NCBI RefSeq assembly: GCF_004010195.1
Contig: NC_057749.1
Span: 9,373,492 to 9,437,491, forward strand
DNA from: Chiloscyllium plagiosum
Taxonomy: Eukaryota
DNA length: 64,000 bases
Direction of reading: 5' to 3'
Both the position numbers and the translations under genes were made by a program. Positions 2,730 to 62,278 of this stretch are shown piece after piece. The notes beneath the pieces are model-generated. The model made no database searches and was not told the origin of the DNA. It saw nothing but the letters and a program-made list of their open reading frames with translations. Positions within the stretch are counted from its first letter, which is position 1; every line of letters starts with the position of its first letter.

Positions 2730-2763
2730 TTCCTGAAGAAGGGCTTATGCCCGAAACGTCGAT
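2730..2763 (+). ncRNA. Minimal type-I hammerhead ribozyme, family A, intact core
   Basis: CUGAAGA (2733-2739), A, GGGC-uuau-GCCC, GAAA-CG-UC; palindromic ACGU stem III; short stem I. Confidence 0.8.
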
Positions 2764-2859
2764 TCTCCTGTTCCCTGGATGCTGCCTGACCTGCTGCGCT
2801 TTTCCAGCAACACATTTTCAGCTCTGATCTCCAGCATCTGCAGACCTCACTTTCTCCTC
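2730..2859 (+). mobile_element. Solo PLE terminal repeat, family A, 130 bp
   Basis: Same sequence as the terminal repeat on the PLE RT/GIY-YIG body at 8315-8405. Perfect 11-bp TSD gtagttttccc at 2719-2729 and 2860-2870. Confidence 0.9.
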
Positions 2860-3229
2860 GTAGTTTTCCCATGCTTCTGCAACCCTTGTCCTTCTAGATG
2901 AAAGTGCTTGTGAGTTTGGAGGGCCTTTGGTGAATTCCTGCAGTGCATCTTGTAGATAGTATACACGGCTTGTATTGGGCAATGGTGGCTGAGGGAGTGG
3001 ATATTTGTGAATGTGAATCAAGTGATCTGCTTTGTCCTAGATGGTGTCAAGCTTTTTCAGTGTTATTGGAGCTGCCCCCATCCAGGCAAGTATCCTAAAT
3101 ACGATATTTTCTAAGGTACATTTGCACCATTAAACACAAAGAAAAGCAACATGTGATGGTCCTGAATCTCTTTTTTGGTGCTTGCATTCTCAATACCTGC
3201 TAGAAAGGTTTCTATTGAGAAAGATTACA

Positions 3230-3660
3230 ACACAAACGCTTTGCACTTTGAGGTGATATCATGCAAAATGCACCAGTTAATGATGATTGACAGCTAACAA
3301 GCAGACTCTGCAAAGCATGCAACAAAGTGTTCAATATATGTGATTCTGCAATTGGATCACAGTTCCTGGATAATCCTAAGTGTGCAAAGAATTACATTGA
3401 CAACTGATTTAGAATTGTCATAATATTGTGCGCTGGACTGTGCATTGAAGCTATATATATTGTAACAGTTGATCTTTGCAGACAGAAAGAACATATACAT
3501 AGACTGTGCTTGTTTCAAATCAACAAAATATGGTGAGAACTATTCTCCAGTTCATTTCTAAGACAATATTTTGATAGTTCACAATTAACCTGCCTGTTTT
3601 AATAGTTAAACAATGCCTGGCATTTAACTGTCATTCGTCATTAACTGATGCCTTTTCCAT
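3230..3660 (+). mobile_element. Old PLE GIY-YIG C-terminal remnant (separate family)
   Basis: Manual translation in pieces: CDSAIGSQFLDNPKCAKNYIDN*FRIV...IEAIYI...DLCRQKEHIHRLCLF, typical of PLE endonuclease C-termini. Confidence 0.6.
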
Positions 3661-3744
3661 GGCAACTGGTTGGGAGGTTAGACTTGTGCTGATGGGAAGT
3701 GTTAGATTTTTCCTTTTTATACCAACCTATTCAGAGACAAAGTA

Positions 3745-3985
3745 TAACATCACACAACACCAGGTTATAGTCCAACAGGTTTATTTGAAATCGACTTTCC
3801 CAGTGCTGCTCCTTCATCAAGTGGTTGTGGAGCAGGATCAGAAGACAGAATTTATAGCAAAAAGATTCTGAGTGTTATGGTCCGAAAGCTAGTGCTTGCA
3901 AATAAACCTGTTGGACTATTATCTGGTGCTGTGTGATTTTTAACTTTGTCCACCCCAGTCCAACACTGGCTCCTCCACATCATGG
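3745..3985. mobile_element. Fold-back mini-element, family C
   Basis: Inverted arms 'tcacacaacaccaggttatagtccaacaggtttattt' and 'aaataaacctgttggactattatctggtgctgtgtga'; same family as 35322-35540; partial hammerhead remnant (ccGAAAGCUAgug). Confidence 0.75.
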
Positions 3986-4060
3986 CCTGTTCAGAGACGT
4001 TATCATACTCACTTTGAACCCAGGCCCCCCAGATCCGAGGCTGGGATACTACCACCAGAG

Positions 4061-4260
4061 ACCGAGAGTGTAGTGCTGGAAAAGGATAGCAGGTCAGGCA
4101 GCACCCGAGGAGCAGAAGAAACTGCGTTTCTTCCTGATGAAGGGCTTAAACCCGACACGTCGATTCTCCTGCTCCTGGGATGCTGCCTGATTTGCTGTGC
4201 TTTTCCAGCACCACTCTACTCTTGACTCTGATCTCCAGCATCTGCAGTGCTGACTTTCTC
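4061..4260. mobile_element. Fold-back PLE mini-element, family A
   Basis: Inverted arms; TSD ctaccaccagag (4049-4060) / ctatcaccagag (4261-4272); hammerhead GAAA mutated to GACA. Confidence 0.85.
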
Positions 4261-4699
4261 CTATCACCAGAGGCCCCAGAGTGTAAGACTTGAGCTGAGC
4301 TCCCAATGTAAATCAGCCCTTCAGTGATATTTGAGTTTCCCGTGTACATTGCAGCTCTACACTGCGTGATCTCGCCCCATTTACGTTGCCGGAAATTCTC
4401 AGCCATAATTAGGCAGCAATTAAACCAAGAGTCACTGGGCAAGATTGAAATTTGGCTGCAATAAACTCAACCCTTAAAGAAGTTGTTGGGATACATGCAC
4501 AGAGGCGTTTTGTTTTCAGCTGTTAATCCTAGTATTCCAACGTTTTGTTTGTGTTTTTTCTCTCTCTCTCTGCAAACATTCCACAGTTGTGAATTAGAGG
4601 CTCTGTGTGTACTTAGTCATGATTTTTATAGGAAATTATATCCTTGAAAAAAGTTAAGCAAAATAAAGTGAGCACTTTTTAAAATTAACTCCCCCCCCC

Positions 4700-6675: not shown

Positions 6676-6767
6676 CCCATTTGAGTGGGTCCTCAAGGTC
6701 TATATTTGAACTGGTATCTAACGAGTCTATTACATTCACCTGAAACTGCTGGTGGGGCTTGAAAATC

Positions 6768-6803
6768 ATTCCTGAAGAAGGGCATGTGCCCGAAACGTCG
6801 AAT
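6768..6803 (+). ncRNA. Minimal hammerhead ribozyme, family A, best-preserved copy
   Basis: AUUC-CUGAAGA-A-GGGC augu GCCC-GAAA-CG-UC-GAAU. Stem I AUUC/GAAU; stem II with a different loop from other copies; all core nucleotides intact. Confidence 0.85.
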
Positions 6804-6895: not shown

Positions 6896-7007
6896 CTTGA
6901 AAATCAGGTCTCATCTGAATGACAGGGTCTACAAAACTGCAGCTCTCTCCTCAGTACTCAATTTCTAATGTCAGGCTGAATTATGTATTGACATCTCTTG
7001 GATTGGG

Positions 7008-8405
7008 AGAAAGTGAAGACTGCAGATGCTGGAGGTCAGAGTTCGAGAGTGTGGTCCTGGAAAAGTCCATGAATCCCGCACCAACTGATTCTACCTCCCG
7101 AAGATTCACAAACCCGACTTCCCCAGTCAACCCATTGTCTCAGCTGGCTCCTGTCCCACTGAACTCATTTCTGCATACCTTTACACCATCCTGTCCCCCT
7201 TAGTCCAGGAACTCCCCACCTACGTTCAGGACACCACCCACACCTTTCACCTCCTCCAAGACTTTCGATTCTCCTTCTCTTTTGATGCTGCCTGACCTGC
7301 TGCGCTTTTCCAGCAACACATTTTTAAGCTCTGATCTCCAGCAGCTGCAGTCCTCACTTTCTCCCACCTGCATGGGCCCCAGCGATGCCTGCCTCTTTGT
7401 TGGGTACATGGAACAGTCCATCTTCCACACCATTCTCCACCTTTTCCTCCACTACACTGATGACTGTATCGGTGCTACCTCGTGCTCCCATGAGGAGATT
7501 CAACAGTTCATAAACTTCACAAACATCTTTCACCCCAACCTCAAATTCACCTGGACCATCTCAGACATTTTCCTCCCCTTCCTGGACCTCTCCATCTCTG
7601 ACGACCAACTAAACATGGACTCCCACAAGTACCTGGACTGCACCTCCTCCCACCCTGCCTTGTGTAAAAGCACCATCTCTTATTCCCAATTCCTCCACCT
7701 CCGCCAAATCTGTTTCAGGACGATGACATTACCACTAAAGCTAAAGTCAAAGGAAGGCTCCAAAGGATCCTTCCACATCCGACAGAAATTTACCTGTACC
7801 TCCACAAATGTTGTCTACTGTTTCCGTTGTACCCAAAGTGGTCTCCTCTACATCGGGGACGCCAATTTGTGGATCATTTCAGAGGATATCTCTGGGACAC
7901 CCGCACCAACCAACCCCACCGCCCTGTGGGTGAACATTTCAACTCACCACCCCCCCCCCCACAACTTCGCAAAGGACATGCAGGTTTGCCTCCTCCATTA
8001 CCAAACCCTAACCACCCGATGCCTGGAGGAAGAATGCCTCCATCTTCCGCCTTGGGATCCTACAACGACATGGGATTAACGTGGATCTCACCAGTTTCCT
8101 CATTACTGCTCCCCCGACCTTATTCCAGTCCCAAGCCTTCAACTCAGCACCACCCTCTTGACTTGTCCATCATTTTTCCCATCTATCCACTCCACCCTCC
8201 TCTCCGACCTATCACCTTCTCCCCCACCTTCATCTATCGATTGTATTCTCAGCTACCTTCCCCCCAGCCCACCACCTCCTATTTATCTCTCAGCCCCCCA
8301 GTCCACAAGCCTCATTCCTGAAGAAGGGCTTTTGCCCGAAATGTCGATTCTCCTGCTCCTCAGATGCTGCCTGACCTGATGTGCTTTTCCAGCAACATAC
8401 TCTCG
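7008..8405 (+). mobile_element. Penelope-like retroelement, internally deleted (RT + GIY-YIG + terminal repeat), with an inverted terminal piece
   Basis: ORF 7282-8079 has MGPSDACLFVGYME...YTDDCIG...HPNLKFT...LPFLD...YLDCTSSHP (PLE RT/thumb) and FTCTSTNVVYCFRC..LLYIG (GIY-YIG). TSD atctcttgga(t/g)tggg at 6993-7007 and 8406-8420. Confidence 0.92.
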
Positions 8406-11400
8406 ATCTCTTGGAGTGGGGTTTGAATTCACAATCTTCTGTAACCTGGAGACAAGAGTTCATCCAGTGAGACAATGCTAACATTGTGCTGTTGTATTAT
8501 CCGTTTGTGATGGGGGAGAGGGGCTGCAATGCCACTCTTTGGATGAGATGTTAAACTCATGCTTTAGGCAGGGCTTTAGGCCATCCCATGGAACTATTTG
8601 AACAGTCAGTGGCAGCAAGATGTTGAATTGATTGATTAGCATTCTCTTTTTTTTGTCTGCGATCTTGCTACGCAGCCGATTGCCTCATTGGCCCACAGAA
8701 GAGGTCAGTGCACTTTAACGCGATTCATTCTGTGTGCAGCAGTTTCAAATGTTTCTTTCAGACAGGATGTATGATTCATCAAGGCAAGGCTTCAGTTCCC
8801 ATGCCTGTCTCCTATTTCTTCATTTTTGAAGATTCCCTGTGTTTTTACATTGCAGCAGACACCATCTATGAAGTCCTGCGCCAAGTAGAATTTCCTGGCA
8901 TCAGACTTGGACTTCACAGAATCACAGAATGGTTAAAGCTCAGGAGGTGGCCCTTTGATCCATCGTGTGTGCTCACTCCCCACAGGAGAAACTTACTCTG
9001 TGTCACTCTTCATTACCCTGTATATTCTTCCTCTTCAGATAATAATCCAGGTTACTCTTGAGTGTCTCGGTTGAACCTGCTTCAACCACAATAAGGCAGC
9101 ACATTCGAGATCCTAAACACTCACTGTGTGAAATAGTTCATATCTCCCTTGGCTTTTTTTGCTAATCACCTTAAATCTGTGCCCTCTCGTCGCCATTCAC
9201 TAATTTGAATCTGCTATTTCTTGTCTTGAAATGTTGATTTAAGTTGCAATACCTTCTTTAAGCTGTCTGAAAACTCAGGCAGGTAGCTGAAGTTTGGGTT
9301 GCAGCCAGGCAGAACCATGTTTACATAGTTTGGCTCCAGCCTGACTGGAATTCTGATGGTCCTTCTCAGGAGAGAGCTGGTGCATACGTGCACTTCTCCA
9401 GACAACTGGAAATTTAAGCTGAGGTCAGGTAGGCTCAAAAAATGCCTTTGGTCCAAGGGAATACTTACTGTAAATCATATTTTGATGCCACAGTTGATTG
9501 ACAGCCCCATGTGGTTTCAAGTCAAATTGATAGGAGTCTGTGGCCCAGGGAGCCTCTTTGCTGCCTCTGTCCAGAATCACAACAGGCCCCAGACCCCAGA
9601 TCCATATTGTAAATTATGAAGTGCAATGGAAGGCATCAGACCTACAGAGTGCTTCTCTTAAGGTCAGTTCAGTCACCTTCTGAAGATTGTGAAGCATGTT
9701 ATTCCAATCTGCAAGCACTTTGTTTCTTGTATTTGAAAGTCATAAAATAAAAAAAAGTGCTGAGCGAAAAATATGTGTTAAACTTCTTTTTTGACAGAGA
9801 CCTTAAGGTTATGGATCAGTGACTTCAGCAATGATCTTCTCAACAGATTTTGATGGGATTGTGCTTTACATGACCTCATTAAAAGACCTTGATGCTGCTT
9901 TCAAAACAATGGTTAATGATTAGTGCCTTTCTGGAGTATTGCCTGTGGACCAGACTGCACTGGCTTAGCTTCTCACGCAACAGGTCAAGCAATTCAAGGA
10001 CAGCACTTCAGTTAACTACCAAACCGTTGTTCTAAACAAAACTTTATCATAACCGCTGCAACCCTTTAATTCTCTGGCTGTGGTGTGGTGTGCTTAGATT
10101 AAAATTGGTTTTAAGTAAGTCAGGATGCTCATCTGCAATGAATGAAAAGTCTCATCAAACTGGAATTCCAAATTACTGTTATACCACTTGCATGTGAAAG
10201 GAAAGGGATGTTACCCAATGCACACACCATTCAGTAGAATTTAATTTGATTTGATTTATTGTTGTCACATGTATATAAGTTCAATGAAAAGTTTTGTTTT
10301 GTGTGCAGCACAGGCAGATCATAGCAAATAAGGACATACAGATGGTAGGTTGAAAGCAGAGTTCCTGAATATGAACATTAGTGAAATATGTTTTTTAAGG
10401 AATTTGCCGATTTCCTGTAAATTATGATGGAACATAGAATGGAAAATTAAACCCGTGTCTGTGGTATGAATGTTTTTGATCTTTATGCAGATTAATTTAA
10501 TGTCAGGACTGGGCAAAGCAGCTTTGTCATATCCAGATTCCCAGGATCTGCAAACGAGGTTTGATTTTGAAGAGAATGGAATAAGCATCAGAATATTCAG
10601 TTGGTGTCACTTGTTGTGATAAGGAAGGGGAGACCATGGAGAAATGTGTAGATAAGGAATGTCCATTATCCTGTTGGTGGGGAGGAGAAACAGTTAATCG
10701 AGATTGGTGAGGACAGGAATGAATGGTAAGCTGGACACAATGCAGGATAAGATGTTGACTACAGGACTTTGGACAATCTGTGGCTCACGAACAATGAATC
10801 TTGGGCAGAGCATTGAAGAAATTGAGCCAGGAGATGATGAAAGAACCCATCCGAATATCACTGACAGAGAAGTATGTGGGAATGCTGTGGAGCTAGAATC
10901 GGAAAGCTTTGATGATGAATATGATAGGAGTTTGAATGATCAGCACTAAGCCAAGAGATGACAACAGGATTGTATACTGTTAGTTTCAGCTTGTGAGAAT
11001 CACTGGGAACAGGATCAGGATCAGGTTTGGAGTTTAAAGCCTCCAGGTGCAGTATGGCCAACTAACATTTCCTCTGATCTTTTCCAACCTCAGAGTGTAC
11101 CTAAGTGATGTACTTTGCTTCCAAATTATGCAGCATCATATCAGCATTGCAACGGCCTTCCCAAACTGTACATGAATTTGCAAGTGTTGGTGTTGCTGGA
11201 GACCTGCATATATAGACATAAAAAACCTGATGGAACTCTTGACTGATCAGACAGGCACTCCAACACCAAATGAAAGTTTTTAAACTTAACATTGAACTTT
11301 CTGCCCCCACTCATTCCTGTCTTTACACTAATTAAGGTGGTCATCTGAATGAGATTTCATGATGCATGGCTCCAACTTGTGAGGAGGGCTGAGCTCACTT

Positions 11401-11676: not shown

Positions 11677-11778
11677 GTTCTGAGGAAGGGGTCACTCAAC
11701 CCGAAACATTAACTCTGATTTCTCTCCACAGATGCTGCCAGACTTGCTGAGCTTTTCCAGCAATTTCTGTTTTTATTT
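11677..11778 (+). mobile_element. Hammerhead-type terminal-repeat unit, family B
   Basis: cUGAGGA-aggggtcactcaaccc-GAAA-ca-UUa followed by the family-B body 'actctgatttctctccacagatgctgccagac'. Confidence 0.75.
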
Positions 11779-12152: not shown

Positions 12153-12253
12153 CGAAACAAAAACAGAAATTGCTGGAAAAGCTCAGCAGGTCTGGCAGCA
12201 TCTTTGAAGAGAAATCAGAGTTAATGTTTTGGGTCTGATGACCCTTCCTCAGA
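12153..12253 (-). mobile_element. Family B unit
   Basis: Reverse complement of 11677-11778; hammerhead degenerate. Confidence 0.75.
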
Positions 12254-14267: not shown

Positions 14268-14684
14268 GCCTAAAATGTGTTGCTGGAAAAGCGCAGCAGG
14301 TCAGGCAGCATCCAAGGAGCAGGAGAATCGACATTTCGGGCATGAGCCCTTCTTCAGGAATGAGGAAAGTGTGTCCAGCAGGCTAAGATAAAAGGTAGGG
14401 AGGAGGGACTTCGGGGAGGGGCATTGGAAATGCNNNNNNNNNNNNNNNNNNNNNNNNNNNNNNNNNNNNNNNNNNNNNNNNNNNNNNNNNNNNNNNNNNN
14501 NNNNNNNNNNNCTATCGCATTTCCAATGCCCCTCCCCGAAGTCCCTCCTCCCTACCTTTTATCTTAGCCTGCTGGACACACTTTCCTCATTCCTGAAGAA
14601 GGGCTCATGCCTGAAACGTCGATTCTCCTGCTCCTTGTATGCTACCTGACCTGCTGTGCTTTTCCAGCAACATATTTTTGGCTC
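14268..14684. mobile_element. Inverted pair of family A PLE ends around an assembly gap
   Basis: Near-perfect ~165-bp inverted arms flanking Ns (14434-14511). Perfect 15-bp TSD catatggagaacaaa at 14253-14267 and 14685-14699. Hammerhead core at 14593-14620. Confidence 0.88.
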
Positions 14685-18361: not shown

Positions 18362-18665
18362 GTTTAATACAATATGTGCTAACCATCCCTTCTACATAAC
18401 AGGATAAGAGATGAGCTGTCTCCATCTTTTAATAGCTCATGAATCCAACACATTCAGGGGAGAGATTTGTCTTGGGCAATGAAATGAAAATCGCTACCAG
18501 GTCAGTTGGCTGATATTCAGTTCTATTGTAGTGAAAGAGAGTATTTTATACTCTCAGTATTTTAACTACTTTAGTGATGACATTACAAAGAATTATCAAA
18601 TGAACCTTGCCCAGGTAGTGGTTTTATGGCATTAAAATTCACCTACCTAAACTTTGTTAGCTCAG

Positions 18666-18887
18666 ATTCTGGATCAGTGGTGCTGGAAGAGCACAGCAAT
18701 TCAGGCAGCATCCAACGAGCAGCAAAATCGACGTTTTGGGCAAAAGCCCTTCATCAGTTTATTCCTGATGAAGGGCTTTTGCCCGAAACATCGATTTTGC
18801 TGCTCGTCGGATGCTGCCTGAATTGCTGTGCTCTTCCAGCACCACTGATCCAGAATCTGGTTTCCAGCATCTGCAGTCATTGTTTTT
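18666..18887. mobile_element. Fold-back PLE mini-element, family A, with a hammerhead on each strand
   Basis: ~92-bp near-perfect inverted arms with a 7-nt spacer; TSD actttgttagctcaga on both sides. Confidence 0.92.
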
Positions 18888-18954
18888 ACTTTGTTAGCTC
18901 AGAGCATGTGCTCACCCAAGGAGCAATCGTCTTCTTCAGCTGTACGCTCATTAC

Positions 18955-19312: not shown

Positions 19313-19389
19313 CTTGACATTCTCAAAATGCTGGTTTCCTTCAATTACGAAGAAAGTGATTCTCAGTTTCAAACTGTTGTCTGACTTAA

Positions 19390-19625
19390 CAGAGTCAAAA
19401 AGGGTAGTGCTGGAAAAGCACAGCTGGTCAGGCAGCATCTGAGGAGCAAGAGAATCAACATTTTGAACATAAACCCTTCATCAGGAATGGGCCTTATTCC
19501 TGATGGAGGGCTTATGCTTTAAACATCGATTCTCCTGCACCTCAGACGCTGCCTGACTGGCTATGCTTTTCCAGCACCACACTTTCTGACTGTGATCTCC
19601 AGCATCTGCAGTCCTCACTTTCTCC
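19390..19625. mobile_element. Fold-back PLE mini-element, family A, older
   Basis: Inverted arms; both hammerhead motifs degenerate. Confidence 0.8.
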
Positions 19626-20498: not shown

Positions 20499-22223
20499 AG
20501 AAGTGATTGCTGGGCCCATTGCTGAGATATTTGTATCATTGATAGTCACAGGTGAGGTGTAGGAAGTCTTGAGGTTGGCTAATGTGGTGCCACTATTTAA
20601 GAAAGGTGCTAAGAAAAAGCTAAGGGACCTATAGACCGGTGAGCCTGACATCGATGATGGGCAAGTTGTGGGAGGGAATCCTGAGGGAAAGGATTTACAT
20701 GTTTTTGGAAAGGTAAGGACTGATTAGGGACAGTCAACATGGCTTTGTGCATTGGAAATCATGTCTCACAAACTTGATTGAGTTTTTGAAGAAGTAACGA
20801 AAAGGATGATAAGGGCAGAGTGGTGGACATGATCTATATGGATTTCTGTAAGGCATTCGACAAGTATCCTTATGGTAGACTGATTAGCAAGGGTAGATCT
20901 CATGGAATACAGGGAGAACTAGCCATTTAGATACAGAACTGGCTCAAAGGTAGAAGGCAGAGTGTGGTGGCGGAGGGATGCCTTTCAGACTGGATGGGAG
21001 TGGTGTGCCACAAGGATCAGTGCTGGGTCCACTGCTTTTCATCATTTATGCAAATGATTTGGATATGAATATAGGAGCTATAGTTAGTAATTCAAAGTTT
21101 GGGAGAAGATTTGTAGCTCGGGTACTCGTTGTTGTGGTTCTGTTCGCCGAACTGGAAATTTTTGTTGCAAACGTTTCATCCCCTGTCTAGGTGACATCCT
21201 CAGTGCTTGGGAGCCTCCTGTGAATTGCTTGTCGTCTGCGTGTGTGGCTACTAAGGATAGCTGGTCGTGTCATTTCGTGGCTAGTTGATATTCATGGATG
21301 CAGATCGTTAGCTGTCTTCCTATTTGTCCTATATAGTTAGTAAGTTTGCAGATGACACCAAAATTGAAAGTGTAGTGGACAGCGAAGAAGATTACCTCAG
21401 ATTACAACAGGATCTTGATCAGATGGGCCATTGGGCAGAGGAGTAGCAGATCGAGTTTAATTCAGATAAATGCAAGATGCAGCATTTTGGAAAAGCAAAT
21501 CAGAGCAGGACTTATACACTTAAGGGTAAGGTCCTGGGGAGCATTGCTGAACAAAGAGACCTTGGAGTACAGGTTCATAGCACCTTGGAAGTAGGGTCGC
21601 AGGTAGATAGGATAGTGAAGAAGGCGTTTGGTATGCTTTCCTTTATCGGTCAGAGTATTGAGTACAGGAGTTGGGAGGTCATGTTGCGACTGTACAGGAC
21701 ATTGATTCAGCTACTTTTGAAATATTGTGTGCAATTCTTGAAAGGGTTCAGAAAAGATTTACAAGGATGTTGCCAGGCTTGGAGGATTTGAGCTATAGGG
21801 AGAGGCTGAATAGGCTGGATCTGTTTTTCCTGGAGCATCAGAGGCTGAGGGGTGACCTTATATAGGTTTATAAAATCTTGAGGGGGGGATGGATAGGGTA
21901 AACAGACACGTTATTTTCCCCAGGGGAGTCCAGAACTAGAGAGCATAGGTTTAGGGTGAGAGGGGAAAAATTTGAAAGGGACCTAAGGGGCAACGTTTTC
22001 ACGCAGAGGGTGGTGCATGTATGGAATGAGCTGCCAGAGAAAGTGGTGGAGACCAGTACAATTACATTTGAAAGACATTTATATGGATACATGAACAGGA
22101 AGGGTTTAGAGGGATATGGGCCAAGTACTGGCAAATAGGACTGGATTAGGTTAGGATATGTGGTCAGCATGGATGAGTTGGACCAGAGAGTCTGTTTCCA
22201 TGCTGTACATCTCTATGACTCTA
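20499..22223 (+). mobile_element. CR1 LINE, 5'-truncated RT region
   Basis: [28 protein letters not shown] and C-terminal motifs; (ctatgact)n tail; frameshifts and stops. Confidence 0.95.
21091..21331 (-). mobile_element. PLE fragment, family D (GIY-YIG piece + hammerhead terminal repeat)
   Basis: Minus strand 21231-21333 translates IGQIGRQLTICIHEYQLATK*HDQLSLVATHADD (GIY-YIG). Hammerhead at ~21167-21206. TSD tatagttagtaa at 21079-21090 and 21332-21343. Confidence 0.88.
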
Positions 22224-22827: not shown

Positions 22828-22960
22828 TTCTGAAGAAGGGTCACTGGACTTGAAAACCTTAACACTGCTCTCTATTCACAGATGCTGCCAGACTTGCTGA
22901 GTTTCTCCAGCAATTTCTCTTTTTTGATTGTTTCTCCAGTACCCTCCAGGTTTCTGTTTT
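22828..22960 (+). mobile_element. Family B unit, degenerate
   Basis: ctgaagaagggtcactggacttgaaa...cacagatgctgccagacttgctgag. Confidence 0.7.
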
Positions 22961-29425: not shown

Positions 29426-29465
29426 AATATCTGGTCCTGAACACATTGCGTTTTGTAAGCTCTTA

Positions 29466-31786: not shown

Positions 31787-32147
31787 AAGACAAATGAAGA
31801 TAGGGAGAAATTGTATTCATTGGCAGAAGGGTTGAGAACCAGAGGACGCCCATTTAAGGTGATTGGCAAAAATGCCATGGCGAAATTAGAGAAGAGAGCT
31901 ATTCACAAAAATGCAACAAGAGGTTAGGATGTAGAACACACTGTCTGTGTGTGTGGTGGAGGCAGACTCAGCTCAAGCTTTCAAAAGGAAATTGGATAAG
32001 CTCATGAGGGCATAAGAAACATTCAGGATGACGAGAAAGAGTAAGGTTGCCCAAGTTGGTCTTGCAGATAGACACACAAATGGACCAAATATATTATAAC
32101 CATTCTCTGGAGTTGTGGTCCTGTTCGCCGAGCTGGGAATTTGTGTT

Positions 32148-32186
32148 GCAGACGTTTCGTCCCCTGTCCAGGTAACATCCTCAGTG
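32148..32186 (-). ncRNA. Minimal hammerhead ribozyme, family D, intact core
   Basis: Minus strand: ca-CUGAGGA-U-GUUACCU ggac AGGGGAC-GAAA-CG-UC-ugc. Confidence 0.75.
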
Positions 32187-34171: not shown

Positions 34172-34535
34172 GAAACAAGAAAAAAACAAAAGTTGCTGGA
34201 AAAGCACAGCAGATCTGGCAGCATCTGTGCAGAGAAATTAAAGTTAACGCTTCGGGTCCGATGAAGGGCTTTTGCCCGAAACGTCGATTTCGAAGCTCCT
34301 TGGGCGCTGCCTGAACTGCTGTGCTCTTCCAGCACCACTAATCCAGAATCTGGTTTCCAGCATCTGCAGTCATTGTTTTTACCTCGTTTCGGGTCCGGTG
34401 ACCGTTCTAAGGAAGGGTCACCGGACCTGAAACGTTAACTCTGATGTCTCTGCACAGATGCTGCCAGACCTGCTGAGCTTTGTCAGCATTTTTTCCCCTC
34501 TGATTTACAGCATCGGCAGTTCTCTCGGTTTATCT
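34172..34535. mobile_element. Fold-back family B element with a nested family A unit (34261-34384)
   Basis: Family B inverted arms; family A unit inserted with duplication cg(c/t)ttcgggtccg at 34248-34260 and 34385-34397. Confidence 0.88.
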
Positions 34536-35007: not shown

Positions 35008-35312
35008 AGAATCATAGAATCCCTACAGAGTGGAAGCAAGCCATTTTGCCCATCGGGTCCACACTGACCCACCCCCATCCCTGTAACCCTGCATTTTCCA
35101 TGGCTAGTCCACCAACCCTGCATACCCCTGAACACTATGAGCAATTTAGCATGGTCAGTCCATCTACACTGCACATCTTCGGACTGTGGGAGGAAAGCCA
35201 CACCAATATTAGCAGAATGTGCAAACTCCATGCAGTCACCTGAGGGTGGAATCAAACTTTGGTCTCTGGCACTGTGAGGCAGCAGTGCTAACCACTAAGC
35301 CATAGTGCCTCC
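35008..35312 (-). mobile_element. HE1-type SINE, diverged
   Basis: Family similarity in head, central domain and tail. Confidence 0.85.
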
Positions 35313-35321
35313 CAGAAATAG

Positions 35322-35540
35322 TCATGATTTGGAGATGGCAGTGTTGGATTGGGGTGTACAAAGTTAAAAATCACACAACCCCAGACTATAGTCCAACAGG
35401 TTTAATTGGAAGCACTAGCTTTCAGAGAACTGCTCCTTCATCAGGAGGTCAACCACCTGATGAAGGAGCAGTGCTCCAAAAGCTAGTGCTTCCAATTAAA
35501 CCTGTTGGACTATAACCTGGTGTTGTGTGGTTTTTAACTT
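35322..35540. mobile_element. Fold-back mini-element, family C, with a hammerhead on each strand
   Basis: ~85-bp inverted arms. Minus strand reads CUGAUGA-A-GGAG caguu CUCU-GAAA-GC-UA (35413-35447); the plus copy at 35454-35488 has GAAA changed to AAAA. Confidence 0.85.
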
Positions 35541-35687
35541 CTCAGAAGTAGGTGATTCCTCCTGTTAAGCCTGTTCCACCATTCAATGTATCTTGTCATT
35601 GTCAGATTTCTAAATACCAATCTCTAATCATACTCAGTGACTGAGTTTCCACAACAATCCGTGGTAGACAATTGCAAAGTTTCACAA

Positions 35688-35830
35688 ACAAAAACAGAAA
35701 CTGCGAAGAAAAGCTCAGTGGGTTAACGTTAACTCAGCAGCATTTGTGGAGAGAAATCACAGTAAACGTTTCGGGTTCAGTGACCCTTCCTCAGAACTTT
35801 TTCTAGCATCTGCAGTTCTTTTGGTTTTTC
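35688..35830 (-). mobile_element. Family B element with intact hammerhead core
   Basis: Minus 35764-35796: CUGAGGA-A-GGGUc acug aACCC-GAAA-CG-UU. Perfect 13-bp TSD caaagtttcacaa at 35675-35687 and 35831-35843. Confidence 0.85.
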
Positions 35831-40400: not shown

Positions 40401-40633
40401 TCTGACAACAGTAAACAGCTCACTTCAGTTGGTGGGGTGATCTTTAATTCAGCTGCTCCAAGGCTGACAAATCTGATACTGCATTGAACTGGCTGGGTTT
40501 AATATTGTATGTCACGGGAAAGTGAATTCTAGTTCCTGGTAATATAAACCAAACATGCACTCTTGAAAAAAACAATCTTTAGAGTTTAGATCCACAGTCT
40601 GCTTACCCACACTGAAAACTGGTCAGATAGAAT

Positions 40634-40821
40634 CACAAACAGAACTTGCTACAAAAGCTCAGTAGGTCTGGCAGCATCTGTGGAGAGAAATCAGAGTTAA
40701 GATTTTGGGTCCAGTTAACTCTGATTTCTCTCCACTGATGATATCAGACCTTCTGAGCTTTTCCAGAAATTTCTGTTTTTGTTTCTGATTTCCACTATCT
40801 GTAGTTCTCTCGGCTTTTATT
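40634..40821. mobile_element. Fold-back family B element, hammerhead centre deleted
   Basis: Inverted arms; perfect 14-bp TSD tggtcagatagaat at 40620-40633 and 40822-40835. Confidence 0.88.
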
Positions 40822-45676: not shown

Positions 45677-45699
45677 CAATCAAAGAATGCAGAGACTGG

Positions 45700-46390
45700 G
45701 AGCTGGAGACAATGAATAATCTCATTCTCAATGATGGCACAGCCCTGCACATCAGTGCCAAAGCCAAAGCTAAATCATTTGCAACTGTCTTCTGCCAGAA
45801 GTGCTGATCTTAAGCCCATCTTAAGCCAATTTGATTCACTCCATATGATATCAAGAAATGCTGAGTGAACTGGATAAAGAAAATACCATGGGTCCCAGCA
45901 CAATTCACAGGGCAGTTTAGAGTTGTCCTGATGAAGGGCCTATGTCTGAAACGTCGACTCTCCTGTTCCTCGGATGCTGCCTGGCCTGCTGTGCTTTTCC
46001 AGCACACACTTTTCGACTCTGATCTCCAGTATCTGCAGTCCTCACTTTCTCCGAGTCCCTAGCATACCATAGGTGCAGTGTGTTGATGCACTGGTGCAAT
46101 TTGTGAAGGTTACGTCAACAGTCCACAATCGATACCATCCTAAAGGACAAGGGCAGCAGACGAATGGAAACCCCACCACCTCCAAGTTCCCCTTCAATTT
46201 GGAGCCAAATTGTCATTCCATCACAGCCGGTATGTCAGAATCCTGGGACTTCTTCACTGACAGGATTAGGGAGCACCTTCAGCACAGAGGTGGAAGCAGT
46301 TCAAGAAGTAATGCTCACCACAAGTTTCTCAAGGGCAATCAGGAATGGACAATAAGTGCAGTCTTGCCAGGGGCAGCCACATCTTATAGT
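45700..46390 (+). mobile_element. CR1/L2-group LINE fragments (second family) interrupted by a family A unit at 45925-46052
   Basis: LILNDG...SAKAKAKSFATVFCQKC matches ORF 63221-63868; the 3' part matches 24660-25020. Hammerhead GUC-CUGAUGA-A-GGGC cuau GUCU-GAAA-CG-UC-GAC at 45925-45958. Confidence 0.8.
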
Positions 46391-51053: not shown

Positions 51054-51932
51054 TTGCCTCCACCACAGAACACACCAGATGGCTTCCTTCTTTAGAGACC
51101 GCAATTTTCCTTCCCACGTGGTTAAAGATGCCCTCCAACGCATCTCGATCTCGTCCACATCCCACACCTCCACCCTCAGACCCCACCCCTCCAACTGTAA
51201 CAAGGACTGAACACCCCTGGTGCTCACCTTCCATCCTGCCAACCTTCGCATAAACCAAATCATCCGCCGACATTTCCGCCACCTCCAAACAGACCCCACC
51301 ACCAGGGATATATTTCCCTCCCTACCCCTTTCTGCCTTCCGCAAAGACCGTTCCCTCCATGACAACCTGGTCAGGTCCACGCCCCCCTACAACCCACCCT
51401 CCCATCCTGNNNNNNNNNNNNNNNNNNNNNNNNNNNNNNNNNNNNNNNNNNNNNNNNNNNNNNNNNNNNNNNNNNNNNNNNNNNNNNNNNNNNNNNNNNN
51501 NNNNNNNNNNNNNNNNNNNNNNNNNNNNNNNNNNNNNNNNNNNNNNNNNNNNNNNNNNNNNNNNNNNNNNNNNNNNNNNNNNNNNNNNNNNNNNNNNNNN
51601 NNNNNNNNNNNNNNNNNNNNNNNNNNNNNNNNNNNNNNNNNNNNNNNNNNNNNNNNNNNNNNNNNNNNNNNNNNNNNNNNNCCACCCTCCCCCCACCTAT
51701 CACCTTCATCCCCTCCCCCACTCACCTATTGTACTCTATGCTACTTTCTCCCCACCCCCACCCTCCTCTCACATATCTCTCCACCCTTCAGGCTCTCTGC
51801 CTGTATTCCTGATCAAGGGCTTTTGCCCGAAACGTCGATTTTACTGCTCCTCGGATGCTGCTTGAACTACTGTGCTCTTCCAGCACCACTAATCCAGAAT
51901 CTGGTTTCCAGCATCTGCAGTCATTGTTTTTA
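51054..51932 (+). mobile_element. Penelope-like element fragment, family A, spanning an assembly gap
   Basis: QMASFFRDRNFPSHVV...LTFHPANLRINQIIRRHFRHLQTDP..PLSAFRKDRSLHDNLVRS (PLE linker); terminal repeat at 51805-51932 with CUGAUCA (mutated core). Confidence 0.9.
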
Positions 51933-57154: not shown

Positions 57155-57437
57155 CGAGGTGTTACCACTCTCTACAGTTTCTGTATCTGGCTCTTCTCTT
57201 GTTAGCAGATTGGGATTTTGGAAATGAAGAGTCAAGAAGAAGGGGAAACTTTCATTGAACCTTTGTTTTCTTCCAAAAATATACTTTATTCATAAAATTT
57301 TCTTTGTATACATATATTATATATCTATATATAGTCACAAATGCAGTTCAGTTCTGCACAGTAACATAGCAAGGAAACAAACATTAGAGTTTGACTCGAT
57401 CCAAACAAAGCAAAGGCTTGAACCAGACTATATTCAC

Positions 57438-57500
57438 ATGACACCAGGTTATAGTCCAACAGGTTTTATCACAAGCTTTTGGAGCAGGGCTCCATCATCA
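57438..57500 (-). mobile_element. Family C fragment inside a Tx1-like 3' UTR remnant (57270-57580)
   Basis: 'acaccaggttatagtccaacaggttt...agcttttggagcagggctccatcatca'. Confidence 0.65.
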
Positions 57501-58969
57501 CCCAGTCCAATACCGATACCTCCACATCATATTTACATGCATTGGAGGGTCTGCACACCTACAGTTCACTTTGCTACGTAACAGGGAGGCAGTGGGGAGA
57601 AAGGTTACAAGGACATACCAGAAAGGTGTAGGGATAAATATTAGAAAAGGATCGACAGGCTAGGTCTGTTCTCCAGGGTTGACCTTGAGGTCTTTGAAAT
57701 TACTGAAGATTTTGATGAGCGTGGACACAGAGAGAATATTTCCTCTTGCGGGGAAGAATGGAGGCATTTTTTATATCCAGAAGTACTCTTACACACAACT
57801 ACTTGTTTTTGTTTCCTCCGTCACCAAATCACTGGTGGTATTTCATTAATCTATTAATGACCACCAGTAAATCACTGGTTTTTCCAATTGATTAATTGAC
57901 ATGTAAAATCCATTTTAAGGGCGGAGGTGAGAGAGCATGGAACGGCTAAATCAAAATGGAGATTGATGGAGCGATAAAGCACTATCCCATGCAGGTAGTG
58001 AGGTATTGAGAGTAGTGGTGGACTCTGCATGCTCTGTCCCAAAGGATACAAAGCATAAATGCAGCTGCAGAAGAGGGGCTGACTGTCAGCAGTTATGATG
58101 CCTTCTGCTGCCCACTGGACCTGTTAATGACCAACTTGTCCAAGCCCAGGAGCTGCCCACAAGGAAGTCCGCTGACTTGCCCACACCCTTTCACACACCA
58201 GATGCTCAAAGATCAAGAGCATGGGGTTCAAAGATATCCAAAAGTACAATGATAGATTTTTCAAATAACTAAAAGATTGGTGGCCAACAACCAATATATA
58301 CATGCCCATGGATTCCAAAGCATCATAGAGTAAACAGTTAGTCTGGGAGTCTAAGCACAAGAGGCTAAGCGGCCTGGTCAATATTTACCCTTCAATTGAC
58401 AACAGTGAATGTGGTTTCTTCCTCATTATCTAATTTCTGTGGGATCTTGCTGTACTCAAGCTGGCGTCTGTGTTTCCTACAATTGTAACAGTGACTGATC
58501 ACATCTTTTGAACTTCTCAGCATTGTTTCCTGACATGGTAAAATGCTGTGTAATTCTGATTAACAAGACAAAATCAGAAGCAATTTTGTGCCCAACATGA
58601 TCAATTATTAGTAAATGGTGAGGTAATCTGCCTTTGGTGGGCCTGGAGGGGATGTTATCTAGGACAAGAAATTTGGAGACAAGGGCTCCTCTTCAATCCC
58701 TTTCATTCTGCACAACATATGACAGGGCCTTGTTTGAGAGGCAGTTTCCTTTTGGAAAGACTTGCTGAATAAGTGCTACTCAAGCACACAACTGGTCAGT
58801 GGCAGATCTATTCTGCTACTCACTAACAACTAGGAATAGCCCAGTAAGCACGCAAACAAACTCAACGGGATTTGCCTTTTGGAATTCCAGTGTAGCCATT
58901 TTCCATTGCCTGAATATCAACAGTGGTAGGAAAAGACCCTTTGGTTGGCATTAGTACCCATAAGGACCT

Positions 58970-59896: not shown

Positions 59897-60054
59897 GGCA
59901 AAACTGAGGACTGCAGAAGCTGGAAATCAGAGTCTAGATTAGAGTGGTGCTGGAAAAGCACAGCAGGTTAGGTAACATCCGAGGAGCAGGAAAATCGACG
60001 TTTCGGGCAAAAGCCCTTCATTAGGAAGGGCTTTTCCAGCACCACTCTAATCTA
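59897..60054. mobile_element. Fold-back PLE mini-element, family A
   Basis: Inverted arms; degenerate 16-bp TSD gactccatcactctaa / gaccccaccaccctaa; core CUAAUGA mutated. Confidence 0.82.
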
Positions 60055-60889
60055 GACCCCACCACCCTAACCCTGCCTGTAGTTGAATGTGGAGTAACAA
60101 ACTGCAAGACCACACTGCACATTCACAATAGGAAACATTTAATGTTGTTGACTTCCTTAAAAAATTAGCACTGCGCTTTTAATGCAAGCTTGTCCTTTCT
60201 TTCACTTCCTTTTTGACCCATAGTTTGACAAGTTTGTGTGTTGCTTATTCATATAAGTGTGTGAAAATGTGAAAGTGATAGGCATGAATAATGGTTTTCA
60301 AAGTGCAAAAGGTTCATCAGAGCAGCAGGACAGTATAACTCCAGTCTCTTTAATGATTCACATGATTCATGGAGAATGACCGCACCCTTGTTGATCTTTT
60401 CGCTGCTTCTGTAATGCCAAATTCTTTTGTTTATTATTATTTTTCTATTGTTATTTGCTTTATTTCAGTTTGTGAAGGATGAAATTTGGAGAGTTTTGCA
60501 CGGCAAAGGGTGCAGTATGGAGTTCAATTGCAGAGCAATCAGGATATCACTGAATGGCAGAACAAGCTTCAGGGACTGAATGCTCTCCTGCTGTACATTG
60601 GTACATCTTTCAAGCTTTGAATAATTTGTCAAATTTAGAGTTCAGTTCAGTTTGCTCAGTTAATGAGCTGACGAGAATGGGATGCCAATGGCTCAGGTTC
60701 AATCTCCATACTGGCTGTTGTAGCTCAAGGATGTCTGCCTTCTCAGGTAACCCCACACTTGCAGAGTTGTGCCCTTAAAATTATGCATATAAAACCAATT
60801 GTGCATTCTCATGGAAAGAGGTGCCTATGGACATTTGTCGGCTAGGGTTAAATACCTTACCAAATTTGGTTAATCAATATGAAAATCAA

Positions 60890-61236
60890 AGACTCCCTAC
60901 AATGTGGAAGCAGGCCATTCAGCCCAATGAGTTCACACTGCCCCTCTGAAGAGTATCCCACCCAGACCCCTATTCTATCCCTGTAACCCTGCACTTGTCC
61001 TGGTTAATCCACCTAACCAACACATCCCTGGACATATGGGCAATTTAGCATGGCCAATCCATCGAATTTGCACAGGTTTGGACTGTGGGAGGAAATCAGA
61101 GTATCCAGGGGAAATCTACCCAGACATGGGGAGAACACGTAAACTGCACACGGACAGTCACCCGAGGCTGGAATCAAACCTGCATTCCTGGTGTGGTGAT
61201 GCAGCAGTGCTAACCACTGAGCCACTGTGCCGCCCC
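60890..61236 (-). mobile_element. HE1-type SINE
   Basis: Family match. Confidence 0.88.
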
Positions 61237-61254
61237 CACTAGTTAATTTTATAC

Positions 61255-61672
61255 TCGAAAAGCTTGACGACATCGAGGACAAATAATCCTGCTTGATCAG
61301 CACCCTATCCTTCAACATTCACTCCACTGACTGTACAATCTACAAGAGGCACTGCATCAACTCACCAATGCTCTTTTGGTTGCACCTTCCAAACCCACCA
61401 CCTGAAAGGGCAATGGCAGCAGACTCATGGAAACACCATCTGCACACCTACCTTCAAGCCACACTTGCCTTGGAACTATATCACTGTTCCTTCACTGCTA
61501 CTGGGTCAAAATCCTGGAACTCCTTTGCTTGCAGCGCTGTAAATGCTTCTACACCACATGGACTGCAGCAGTTCAAGGAGACATCTCACCACCATGCTCT
61601 CAAGGGCAATTATAGTTGGTCAATAAATGTTCCCTGAGCTAACAATGCCCACATCCCCGATCGAATAAAAGA
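61255..61672 (+). mobile_element. CR1/L2-group LINE 3' end (second family)
   Basis: Similarity to 24585-25030. Confidence 0.8.
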
Positions 61673-61721
61673 AAAAAAAGCTAAATTTGATAAAGTTATA
61701 GTCCATTTGGATGTTTCCGAA

Positions 61722-62146
61722 GGATGAGCTATATGGAAGGATTGAATAGGCTGGGGCTTTTTTCCCTCGAATATCGGAGGCTGAGGGGTGACCTTATAGA
61801 GATTTAAAGAATAATGAGGGGCATGGATAAGGTAGATAGCCAACATCTTTTTCCTAGGGTCGGGGAATCCAAAACTAGAGGGCATAGGTTTATGGTGAGA
61901 GAGGAAAGAAAGGGATCTGAGGGGCAACTTTTTCACACAGAGGGTTATGCAGGTATGGAATGAGCTGACAGAGGAAGTGGTGGAGGTTGGTACAATTGCA
62001 CATTTAAAAGGCATCTGGATGGGTATATGGAAACAAACTGTTTAGAGGGATATGGACCAAATGCTGGTAAATGGGACTAGGTCAGATTGGGATGAGTGAG
62101 TTGGACCAAAGGTTCTGTTTCTATGCTGTAAGACTCTATGACTATG
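61722..62146 (+). mobile_element. CR1 3' fragment
   Basis: Similarity to 21785-22223. Confidence 0.9.
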
Positions 62147-62164
62147 AGCAGAAAGGGTCAAATA

Positions 62165-62278
62165 GCTTTCTGAAATAAAAATAGAAAGTGCTGGAGAAAC
62201 CCAGCAGGTCTGACAACATCAGTGGAAAGAGAAACAGAGTTAACATTTGGAGTCTGGTATGACTCTTCTGAGGAACCT
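62165..62278 (-). mobile_element. Family B unit, degenerate
   Basis: 'gtgctggagaaacccagcaggtctgacaacatcagtggaaagagaaacagagttaacattt'. Confidence 0.7.

Follow-up and report, generated by a model that had tools for sequence, protein, structure and literature searches.

Hammerhead-like motifs had been read from the letters of a 64,000-nt stretch of Chiloscyllium plagiosum DNA (hereafter the window) and assigned to the repeats of four retroelement families. We asked whether these motifs are real, how the families that carry them are related, and which kind of element left them in place.

Recognition and structure of the motifs

The descriptor search proposed by this sequence-only reading was run on the window. 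A strict minimal-hammerhead descriptor, which required the exact core, no fewer than 4 bp in helix II, an A-NN-U whose NN is self-complementary, and H17, matched 8 sites distributed over all four families (A 4, B 1, C 1, D 2), compared to none in 300 dinucleotide shuffles. The loose pattern CTGANGA-N6-30-GAAA was found 21 times, compared to 7.2 ± 2.6 (largest 12) in 100 shuffles. A covariance model built from 22 copies and used to search the window with filters off returned 24 sites at E ≤ 6e-5 in 64 kb (A 14, B 5, C 2, D 3), plus about five weaker, degenerate sites (6559, 62237, 35904, 3788 and 57474). These numbers agree with the roughly 25 units first estimated, and the motif positions and every quoted family A loop-2 variant were recovered. 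The hammerhead-like motifs in the window are real. None of the Rfam hammerhead families (types I, II, III, HH9, HH10) matched the window at the gathering threshold, and the 17 Rfam matches obtained at E ≤ 10 did not include a hammerhead family. A motif that has neither helix III nor loop contacts would not be expected to match; recognition therefore depends on the home-made descriptor and model. The loci are listed in Table 1.

Table 1. Hammerhead-bearing units and PLE remnants in the window, by family.
Family	Position	Strand	Feature	Details
A	2730-2860		solo unit, ~128 bp	11-bp target-site duplication
A	2733..2760	+	hammerhead, core intact, helix III ACGU	5′ tip of unit 2730-2860
A	4134..4161	+	hammerhead, core substitution (GACA replacing GAAA)	right arm of inverted pair 4039-4262
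A	6769-6897		solo unit with hammerhead 6772	11-bp target-site duplication
A	6772..6799	+	hammerhead, core intact, helix I 4 bp
A	7006..8406	+	composite PLE insertion	flanked by 15-bp direct repeats with 1 mismatch; contains successively an inverted unit tail, RT pieces, an A-unit piece 7265-7364 (begins at predicted cleavage site), RT and GIY-YIG remnants, A hammerhead 8318-8345, short tail
A	8318..8345	+	hammerhead, helix III decayed to AUGU	~160 bp downstream of GIY-YIG remnant, same strand
A	14330..14357	-	hammerhead, arm of inverted PLE 3′-end pair	pair spans assembly gap 14434-14511
A	14593..14620	+	hammerhead, other arm of 14330 pair	10.1-11.1 pair is G-U
A	18660..18889		head-to-head inverted pair	hammerheads 18730-18757 (-), 18765-18792 (+); 16-bp exact target-site duplication; short left arm, long right arm
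A	19388..19625		head-to-head inverted pair	degenerate hammerheads 19457-19484 (-), 19500-19527 (+); 10-bp target-site duplication; both arms begin at ATTC, the helix I 5′ strand
A	34258..34285	+	unit within helix II region of inverted B pair	first bases (CCGATGA) may be target duplication, not mutated core
A	45928..45955	+	hammerhead, core intact, two G-U pairs in helix II	solo unit
A	51058..51396	+	PLE ORF remnant	82% identical to residues 549-651 of P0005; downstream, gap 51410-51681, then A hammerhead 51809, same strand
A	51809..51836	+	hammerhead, C at core G8	3′ end of second PLE remnant
A	59997..60024	-	hammerhead, A at core G5	full unit 59896-60027
B	11680..11710	+	intact-core hammerhead with helix III decayed to ACAU	short 3′ end
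B	12223..12252	-	hammerhead, A at G12	short 3′ end
B	22830..22859	+	hammerhead, degenerate 3′ half	long 3′ end
B	34170..34535		inverted pair	right-arm hammerhead 34407-34436, A at G5; later split by A unit 34256-34384
B	35765..35794	-	hammerhead	sole B copy passing strict descriptor
B	40633..40816		inverted pair of 5′-truncated units	14-bp exact target-site duplication; right arm begins at most 3 nt from predicted cleavage site
B	62169..62280	-	degenerate unit	model score 12.9 bits, E 0.13; end of the range first described
C	3737..3984		second inverted pair	degenerate hammerhead 3788-3825 (-); plus arm truncated inside helix II; between 13-bp direct repeats (1 mismatch)
C	35300..35545		inverted pair	hammerheads 35416-35444 (-), 35457-35485 (+); long minus arm, short plus arm
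C	57430..57505	-	fifth copy, degenerate
D	21091..21331	-	insertion	12-bp target-site duplication; ~130 nt pseudo-LTR, hammerhead 21170-21203, ~80-nt tail
D	32112..32783		inverted pair	hammerheads 32151-32184 (-, short arm), 32671-32704 (+, long arm); between 9-bp direct repeats; tRNA-derived SINE later inserted at ~32187-32502
D	32622..32784	+	open frame through hammerhead	start 32622 read by eye; searched part 32647-32784; ATG overlaps A9, bulge and G10.1

The motif comprises a helix I of 3-4 bp, CUGANGA, one extra base, a helix II of 4-7 bp closed by G10.1-C11.1, GAAA, a helix III formed by A15.1-NN-U16.1, and then H17. The self-complementary NN gives ACGU or AGCU in helix III, and the predicted cleavage site is GUC, GUU or CUA, triplets that are all present in the window. 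The catalytic core (C3 U4 G5 A6 N7 G8 A9 ... G12 A13 A14) is found in every family consensus. Every core base is kept in 13 of the 24 copies and the other 11 carry a core substitution; core and palindromic helix III are both kept in 8. Since the copies are decaying, the constancy first ascribed to the core belongs to the family consensus and not to the individual copy. Indeed, neither of the family C copies listed at the outset is free of defects: G12 is replaced by A in one, and helix II is weakened in the other.

Each of the 24 aligned copies has one unpaired base separating A9 from G10.1; this base is U in family D and A in the other three families. The adjoining G10.1-C11.1 pair (pair 14-31) is G-C in 18 copies and G-U in 6. 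Family C has AGCU as helix III and the other three families have ACGU; the sequence is palindromic in 15 of 24 copies. With the exception of the degenerate copy at 22830, the non-palindromic copies read AUGU or ACAU, and all departures from ACGU are C-to-U or G-to-A changes at CpG.

Over the 24 copies, 75% of the cells pair, compared to 63.9 ± 1.7 after shuffling (reached in none of 500 shuffles), and the covariation score is 0.431 compared to 0.228 (0/500). Slid controls were all at or below 52% paired. Changes on both sides occur in 7 of the 8 pairs, including 4 of the 5 pairs of helix II, where 80.8% of the cells are paired; in family D, this helix contains one internal A-G mismatch. Helix I (65.3% paired) measures only 2-4 bp in the majority of copies and 0-1 bp in 7 of 24, though all three of its pairs covary from family to family (A UUC/GA-, B GUU/AAC, C CAC/GUG, D GCA/UGC). 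Thermodynamic folding of monomers, which is silent on catalysis, formed helices I and II for 6772 and 35794. The genuine covariation is found between families and not in the family A loops, where it had been placed: loop differences within families are neutral decay or subfamily marks.

Family relationships and link to PLE coding sequence

An HMM of the A units matches the B copies with E-values of 4.5e-12 to 6.8e-15. The two families are homologous over the whole unit of about 127 nt and have the GGG/CCC of helix II in common. As judged by sequence, A and B represent two branches within a single repeat family. Four unrelated families, as originally described, were rejected on the strength of this HMM match; homology along the whole unit leaves three unrelated lineages (A+B, C and D).

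A tblastn search with 4 PLE proteins located PLE coding pieces in the window only at 7065-8155 and 51058-51396. RT and GIY-YIG remnants lie upstream of a hammerhead, on the same strand, at two family A loci. The family A coding matches to shark PLE proteins reach E 5.6e-48 (E 2.9e-12 for the GIY-YIG stretch), and the coding frame of P0004, a zebra-shark protein, runs through an A-type hammerhead at its C-terminus. Near family D, the window search gave no PLE coding match better than E 8.8. The D unit itself encodes the N-terminus of P0008, a bamboo-shark PLE protein of 656 aa that contains an RVT_1 domain (E 4.9e-17, 93% identity). Family D is connected to PLEs only by way of this outside protein, and through RT only. 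The link of family B to PLEs comes from its homology to A. No linked ORF was found for families B and C, and a search for their autonomous partner returned none. The tie of A and D to RT/GIY-YIG sequence within the window, part of the first description, consequently holds for A at its two loci but not for D, which has nothing beside it there.

Insertion architecture and origin of the units

Of 14 insertions tested, 10 are flanked by an exact repeat of 9 bp or more (random-pair control, P = 0.0095). Nine head-to-head inverted pairs were found among families A, B, C and D. In each pair the two distal ends differ in length, one being shorter and the other longer, and five of the pairs lie between exact flanking direct repeats of 9-16 bp. 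This asymmetry matches the inverted 5′ copy and one-sided tail of 30-40 bp described for PLEs in the available part of PMC8557442. All four families therefore display PLE-type insertions, with target-site duplications, head-to-head pairs that stem from a single insertion event, and short and long distal ends. The proposal of minimal hammerheads on PLE repeats in four families is thus supported by the statistics, the compensation between families and the insertion architecture, and is amended as to the independence of the four families, the family D link and the loop covariation.

Short and long ends are about 35 nt apart in family B (8 short and 4 long among 12) and differ by about 38-40 nt in families C and D. 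In family A, long ends fall at position 128-130 in 13 fragments, and the shorter ends, at 78-112 in 7 fragments, are less discrete. Ten fragments are truncated on the hammerhead side while their far ends fall into the short and long classes, which identifies the far end as the priming end. The A/B unit is a compact piece of about 127 nt beginning exactly at helix I. No head-to-tail tandem of one family was detected among the 34 A-model matches or the family query matches, so that the loci of the window would be unable to form a double hammerhead in cis. Adjacent units on the same strand were limited to the A unit within the B pair (34258/34406) and the unit piece joined to a truncated ORF at 7006-8406.

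Very probably, these loci are fossil 3′-terminal (pseudo-LTR) pieces of PLEs from three unrelated lineages, each with a master copy that carried a minimal type-I hammerhead. According to published work on other PLEs, two motifs of a multi-unit transcript would join by way of their palindromic helix III to form a double hammerhead, which would self-cleave slowly, probably with the help of the element's protein. Reverse transcription would start internally, about 60-100 nt downstream of the cut, with priming on both strands of the nicked target. Such a mechanism would place the hammerhead at the 5′ edge of the unit, give it a tail of about 60 or about 97 nt, duplicate the target site and produce inverted pairs arranged head to head. 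The inserted copies would then decay neutrally, which would account for the loss of a core base in about half of them.

Three other explanations were weighed against this one. The motif could be a selected RNA structure kept as a 5′-terminal fold or protein-binding platform, its likeness to a hammerhead being a legacy. In the three inverted pairs with both arms complete (18660-18889, 19388-19625 and 35300-35545), both arms end within a few bases upstream of CUGANGA, and solo units likewise begin just upstream of it; the template RNAs thus held an uncleaved hammerhead at their 5′ tip. Moreover, hammerhead mutants of the Anolis PLE showed unchanged insertion in vitro, the main substrate being unprocessed RNA (PMC11167929). 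We nevertheless consider this explanation unlikely. The catalytic positions are kept in three unrelated lineages though the stems change, and G12, A13, A14 and a non-G at 17 are conserved although superfluous for a mere hairpin. In addition, fungal PLE hammerheads cleave well and metazoan ones weakly, as dimers (PMC4209133).

Alternatively, the short units might be non-LTR retrozymes, that is tandem hammerhead repeats spread via small circular RNAs copied by rolling circle. A unit extending from the start of the hammerhead to the start of reverse transcription would correspond to one turn of a circle of about 127 nt, and retrozymes are PLE derivatives that occur in the only cartilaginous fish sampled, according to the accessible part of a preprint (bioRxiv 10.64898/2026.07.22.740005). 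However, no two neighbouring A-model or family query matches on the same strand form a head-to-tail tandem of one family, and the discrete 5′ end shared by the inverted pairs points to a linear template with a fixed 5′ end, which makes this origin highly improbable. A chance likeness, or a LINE/SINE 3′ stem-loop seen from the opposite strand, would agree with the hammerhead end being the constant end in many copies, as is the 3′ end of an ordinary retroposon, and with the silence of Rfam. It has next to no probability and is already contradicted by the absence of strict matches in 300 shuffles, by the PLE ORF upstream on the same strand at two loci and by the D unit, which codes in sense for the N-terminus of a PLE protein. 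The 10 hammerhead-side truncations and the short and long far ends, indicative of priming at the far end, argue against it as well.

Comparison with known systems

The shark motifs belong to a known kind, the minimal hammerheads of PLE pseudo-LTRs. Such hammerheads (min-HHR) were described in metazoan PLEs by Cervera & De la Pena 2014 (PMC4209133) and treated by Lunse, Weinberg & Breaker 2017, as cited in a portion of PMC6765202. Both sets share the core, the extra base between A9 and G10.1, the G10.1-C11.1 pair, the short helix I and a helix III built as a 2-nt palindromic insert. In both, many consensus families with compensatory changes exist per genome, and the motifs are mostly solitary or in opposite-strand pairs near truncated PLEs. 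The window differs by its host, a cartilaginous fish, which is not named in the parts of PMC4209133 consulted, by its density (24 sites in 64 kb) and by the compact A/B unit of about 127 nt starting at helix I.

The closest functional data concern PAc, the Poseidon PLE of Anolis carolinensis (Frangieh et al. 2024, PMC11167929). In family D as in PAc, the start codon is located at the start of helix II. The predicted cleavage site of D lies 28 nt into the frame, compared to 26 in PAc, and the D unit ends about 107 nt into the frame, where PAc has its reverse transcription starts at 111-118. Both classes of ends of the shark units, short and long, fit two neighbouring start sites in the PAc model, and the inverted pairs fit its priming on both target strands. 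In contrast, the hammerhead of families A and B follows the end of the ORF, whereas that of PAc overlaps the ORF start. Protein and in vitro data exist for PAc, whereas the shark elements are known here from their sequence. For PAc, no read was detected that ended at the cut site; given also the mutants that did not affect insertion, the role of cleavage is only a putative one even for the PLE family.

Animal non-LTR retrozymes (Cervera & De la Pena 2020, PMC7229834; Li, Clavereau & Pollet 2026, preprint) resemble the shark units, as far as the available parts of these sources go, in being short, non-autonomous, hammerhead-bearing pieces derived from PLE pseudo-LTRs, with dispersed "monomer" copies reported. 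They are defined there by head-to-tail arrays and circular RNAs, whereas the shark window contains no tandem array. The Sm-alpha and Sj-alpha elements of schistosomes are SINE-like hammerhead elements (PMC6765202, PMC6155905). According to the accessible portions of these papers, they are, as are the shark units, short dispersed non-autonomous retroposons with a type-I hammerhead that needs a dimer. Their motif is described there as a canonical hammerhead with loop-loop contacts, placed behind a promoter, whereas that of the shark units has the minimal form and is located at the extreme 5′ edge.

Minimal hammerheads, their pairing and the state of the copies

The window is repeat-rich vertebrate DNA with two assembly gaps (14434-14511 and 51410-51681). 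A strict descriptor of the minimal hammerhead (exact core with or without a bulge, at least 4 bp in helix II, GAAA, then two self-complementary bases, U and any base but G) was matched at 8 sites, and at none in 300 dinucleotide-preserving shuffles. The descriptor check proposed in the sequence-only reading, run here on the window, thus confirmed the motif in each of the repeat families A, B, C and D. The looser pattern CTGANGA-N6-30-GAAA was found 21 times, compared to 7.2 ± 2.6 (maximum 12) in 100 shuffles. A covariance model, seeded with 22 copies obtained by fuzzy matching and searched without filters, returned 24 sites at E ≤ 6e-5 (A 14, B 5, C 2, D 3), including the pair 19452-19489(-) and 19495-19532(+), which was new relative to the seed. 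Lower-scoring degenerate copies at 6559, 62237, 35904, 3788 and 57474 are by alignment members of the same repeat families. Rfam gave no hammerhead match in the window, at gathering or at E ≤ 10, as expected for a motif that has neither a closed helix III nor loop contacts.

Features of the hammerhead-bearing repeats and of SINE copies (window positions)
Feature	Family	Positions	Remark
Inverted pairs	A	4039-4262, 6517-6677, 18660-18889, 19388-19625	
Inverted pairs	B	34170-34535, 40633-40816	
Inverted pairs	C	3737-3984, 35300-35545	
Inverted pair	D	32112-32783	
Arm junctions of complete inverted pairs		18757-18765, 19486-19498, 35444-35457	
Strict-descriptor sites	A	2733, 6772, 14593, 45928	
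Strict-descriptor site	B	35794(-)	
Strict-descriptor site	C	35444(-)	
Strict-descriptor sites	D	32184(-), 21203(-)	
Core substitutions		18757(-), 12252(-), 35457(+)	A at G12
Core substitutions		60024(-), 34407	A at G5
Core substitution		51809	C at G8
Fragments starting at most 3 nt from predicted cut		7265-7364, 6583-6677, 40715-40816	
Composite block		7006-8406	bounded by 15-bp repeat with one mismatch
tRNA-derived SINE copies		32187-32502, 45374-45678, 52907-53211, 60898-61236, 35160-35314	5-nt repeat tail

When the 24 copies were aligned with the model, 75% of the cells were paired, compared to 63.9 ± 1.7% after shuffling, and the covariation score was 0.431 against 0.228; neither value was reached in 500 shuffles. 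Slid controls were all lower, with at most 52% paired. Two C rows of this alignment are off by one column, so that both figures are conservative. As copies within a family are kin, the informative comparison is between the family consensus motifs. For helix II these sequences are GGGC/GCCC (A), GGGUC/GACCC (B), GGAGC/GCUCC (C) and GUCACCU/AGGGGAC (D), and all have G-C at 10.1-11.1; for helix I they are UUC/GA(U or A), GUU/AAC, CAC/GUG and GCA/UGC, in the same order. The loop-2 differences inside family A, which had also been counted as covariation, are not covariation. Co-folding of two copies produced trivial hairpin-hairpin duplexes only and was set aside.

The constant core claimed earlier holds for the consensus of each family but not for individual copies, 11 of the 24 sites carrying a core substitution (examples in the table). 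All invariant core bases are intact in the other 13, of which 8 also have a palindromic helix III. Where helix III is not palindromic it reads AUGU or ACAU, i.e. ACGU altered at the CpG, with the degenerate copy 22830 as the exception. The copies are therefore insertions in neutral decay. The two family C copies cited in the sequence-only reading are both defective, at different places; the intact C consensus is backed by three more copies (3827-, 3878+ and 57500-).

Minimal hammerheads in the terminal repeats of Penelope-like elements (PLEs) have been in print since 2014, and their presence here is expected, not surprising. PMC4209133 places them in all PLEs examined there, with thousands of copies in coelacanth and Xenopus (4,000-9,000 reported), and describes covarying families that are often solitary or arranged as opposite-strand pairs. 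PMC8455134 lists Penelope elements for whale shark. The specific shark families described here appear undescribed in the literature searched, where the paper found on the combined subject uses 'shark' only for the shape of the motif. If 24 sites per 64 kb were typical, the hammerhead motifs of a 3-4 Gb shark genome would number in the order of a million, which, if true, is far above the coelacanth and Xenopus counts. About 10% of the window derives from PLEs. The shark copies also constitute a clean natural data set, in which three unrelated lineages occur together with compensatory changes in both helices.

Lineages and their relation to Penelope-like elements

The four families had been taken as unrelated in sequence, and this number is reduced to three. 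An HMM built from nine full A units (the unit being the piece of about 127 nt that carries the hammerhead at its 5′ edge in A and B) matches the B copies at 11678 (E 4.5e-12), 34406 (E 6.8e-15) and 22829 (E 7.4e-8). Conversely, B queries match A copies with E down to 4.6e-11, and the central and distal blocks of the unit are common to both. A and B are thus two branches of one repeat family in which helices I and II have co-varied. Queries made from C and D matched only their own copies, which leaves three unrelated lineages.

The proteins closest to the retroelement remnants of the window come from the carpet sharks Chiloscyllium punctatum and Stegostoma tigrinum, which makes a cartilaginous fish the most likely source of the DNA. 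With four PLE proteins as tblastn queries (P0004-P0007), coding remnants were found only at 7065-8155(+) and 51058-51396(+). Among these queries, P0007 carries RVT_1 and GIY-YIG domains, both above the Pfam cut-offs, and the terminal stretch of P0004, from zebra shark, reads by eye through an A-type hammerhead. The first remnant contains the YxDD region and a GIY-YIG stretch and is followed on the same strand by the A hammerhead at 8318; the second is followed by a gap and then by the A hammerhead at 51809. Relaxed tblastn with the same four proteins detected no coding remnant near B, C or D, where the best E was 8.8, or 0.5 for an unrelated N-terminal piece. The tie of A and D to PLE reverse transcriptase (RT) and GIY-YIG sequence, as asserted from the sequence alone, therefore stands for A at two loci, but not for D in the tblastn search of the window.

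Family D is linked to PLEs by another route. Over the 46 aa of the frame through its hammerhead (32647-32784), identity to the N-terminus of P0008 is 93% (E 4.9e-17). P0008, from bamboo shark, is 656 aa long, has an RVT_1 domain and motifs of PLE type, and shares 28% identity with the A-type protein P0005. The ATG of the D frame covers A9, the bulge and G10.1; from the frame start it is 28 nt to the cut and about 107 nt to the unit end, compared to a cut at 26 nt and a reverse-transcription start at 111-118 nt in PAc, the PLE of Anolis carolinensis, whose ORF starts at helix II (PMC11167929). A protein search with the 42-aa frame of one B unit gave no match, which is weak evidence. The Pfam search of 40 stop-to-stop frames missed the decayed PLE ORF; its sole find was an unrelated LINE remnant on the minus strand (36463-38300), with an AP-type endonuclease (Exo_endo_phos, E 3e-11) and an RVT_1 piece.

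P0010, annotated as isoform X2 of the host gene NUDT6 of Chiloscyllium punctatum, matches the window at 32530-32720. Its last ~70 residues are encoded by a D pseudo-LTR including the hammerhead; this is a PLE end that has been either exonised or mis-annotated.

Insertion architecture

The solo A units at 2730-2860 and 6769-6897 begin with the 5′ strand of helix I, end at a constant 3′ position and are each enclosed by an 11-bp target-site duplication (TSD). Of the 14 insertions tested, 10 had exact flanking repeats of 9 bp or more, compared to 0.95% of 2000 trials with random position pairs. Nine inverted pairs of head-to-head units were found in the window. Five are enclosed by a single TSD (exact repeats of 16, 10, 14, 9 and 9 bp), and each of these thus arose from one event. 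On the distal side, one arm is short and the other long in all nine pairs; the end classes of family B are discrete, 8/12 being short and 4/12 long, about 35 nt apart. The composite block contains an inverted unit tail, two RT pieces split by a unit fragment, and a 3′ hammerhead.

The window insertions show the marks of PLE insertion given in PMC8557442, namely an inverted 5′-truncated copy, a partial tandem and a one-sided tail of 30-40 bp. This architecture is the sole evidence that family C is PLE-borne. The footprints are likewise compatible with reverse transcription primed on each of the two target strands and starting at two adjacent internal sites, and the TSDs around inverted pairs and the short and long ends agree with this two-site, two-strand reverse-transcription model, which was proposed from one lizard element in vitro (PMC11167929). 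Retrozymes, head-to-tail hammerhead repeats that spread via circular RNA, are reported in the one cartilaginous fish sampled in bioRxiv 10.64898/2026.07.22.740005. Among the window matches of the A model and of the family queries, no units of one family form a head-to-tail tandem, so that the copies found there fall outside the retrozyme definition.

Within 14253-14683, two inverted PLE 3′ ends, with at least 40 bp of identical upstream flank, are separated exactly by the gap 14434-14511. The position of the gap fits a published comment that assemblies are interrupted by inverted PLE structures; alternatively, it may be an artefact of assembly. At 34258, an A unit has interrupted a B hammerhead in its palindromic helix II. 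The target duplication of the A unit (34251-34264 and 34388-34401; 14 bp, 1 mismatch) resembles a mutated CUGAUGA box, so that the apparent hammerhead at 34258 may be a unit truncated by about 10 nt. One SINE copy lies between the arms of the D inverted pair and directly abuts a D hammerhead. At 55255-55706 there is an AT-rich array resembling a minisatellite, its units irregular and roughly 15-47 nt long.

Copy ends, template RNA and cleavage

Three of the inverted pairs have both arms complete, and in these each arm stops no more than a few bases upstream of CUGANGA. These shared ends imply that the template was a linear RNA whose 5′ end was fixed and still bore the hammerhead, uncleaved, at its extreme tip, which agrees with unprocessed RNA as the main substrate reported for the Anolis PLE (PMC11167929). 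An orientation in which the hammerhead end is the 3′ end of an opposite-strand element was rejected: the PLE ORF lies upstream on the same strand at two loci, the D unit codes in sense for the N-terminus of a PLE protein, and 10 fragments are truncated on the hammerhead side, with the short and long classes at the far ends.

Among the 10 internally truncated fragments, 3 start at most 3 nt from the predicted cut (binomial P 0.015) and in 7 the start falls in the stretch from loop 2 to the cut (P 1.3e-4). Such starts could reflect cleaved templates, and could then be the first traces of PLE hammerhead cleavage in an animal genome. They could equally result from template switching at palindromes, namely helix II and the GTTAAC at the B cut site, ten fragments being too few to decide. 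Published RNA-seq of the Anolis element did not detect hammerhead cleavage (PMC11167929). The window itself establishes the motif and its covariation, places the motif at the 5′ edge of the unit and shows insertion of the PLE type; judging from the literature, multi-unit transcripts would self-cleave as double hammerheads through the palindromic helix III. For PLE double hammerheads, cleavage is described as slow in vitro, and in PAc as assisted by protein (PMC4209133; PMC11167929; PMC6765202). That the shark copy ends record the handling of PLE RNA in vivo, with an uncleaved 5′ tip and cut footprints, and that the motifs are as abundant genome-wide as extrapolated above, seems to us rather unlikely. 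The copies hint at a clustering of ends at the ribozyme, and copy ends collected genome-wide could cheaply tell whether and when PLE hammerheads cut in vivo.

In the unit tail (2778-2845 and its A/B equivalents), blocks are conserved between A and B as much as the hammerhead core. RNAalifold predicted for the A/B units a long-range helix (GAUGCUG with CAGCAUC) and a small tail hairpin (UGCUG/CAGCA), with almost no covariation. The conserved tail blocks are candidates for a structure involved in RT binding or initiation.
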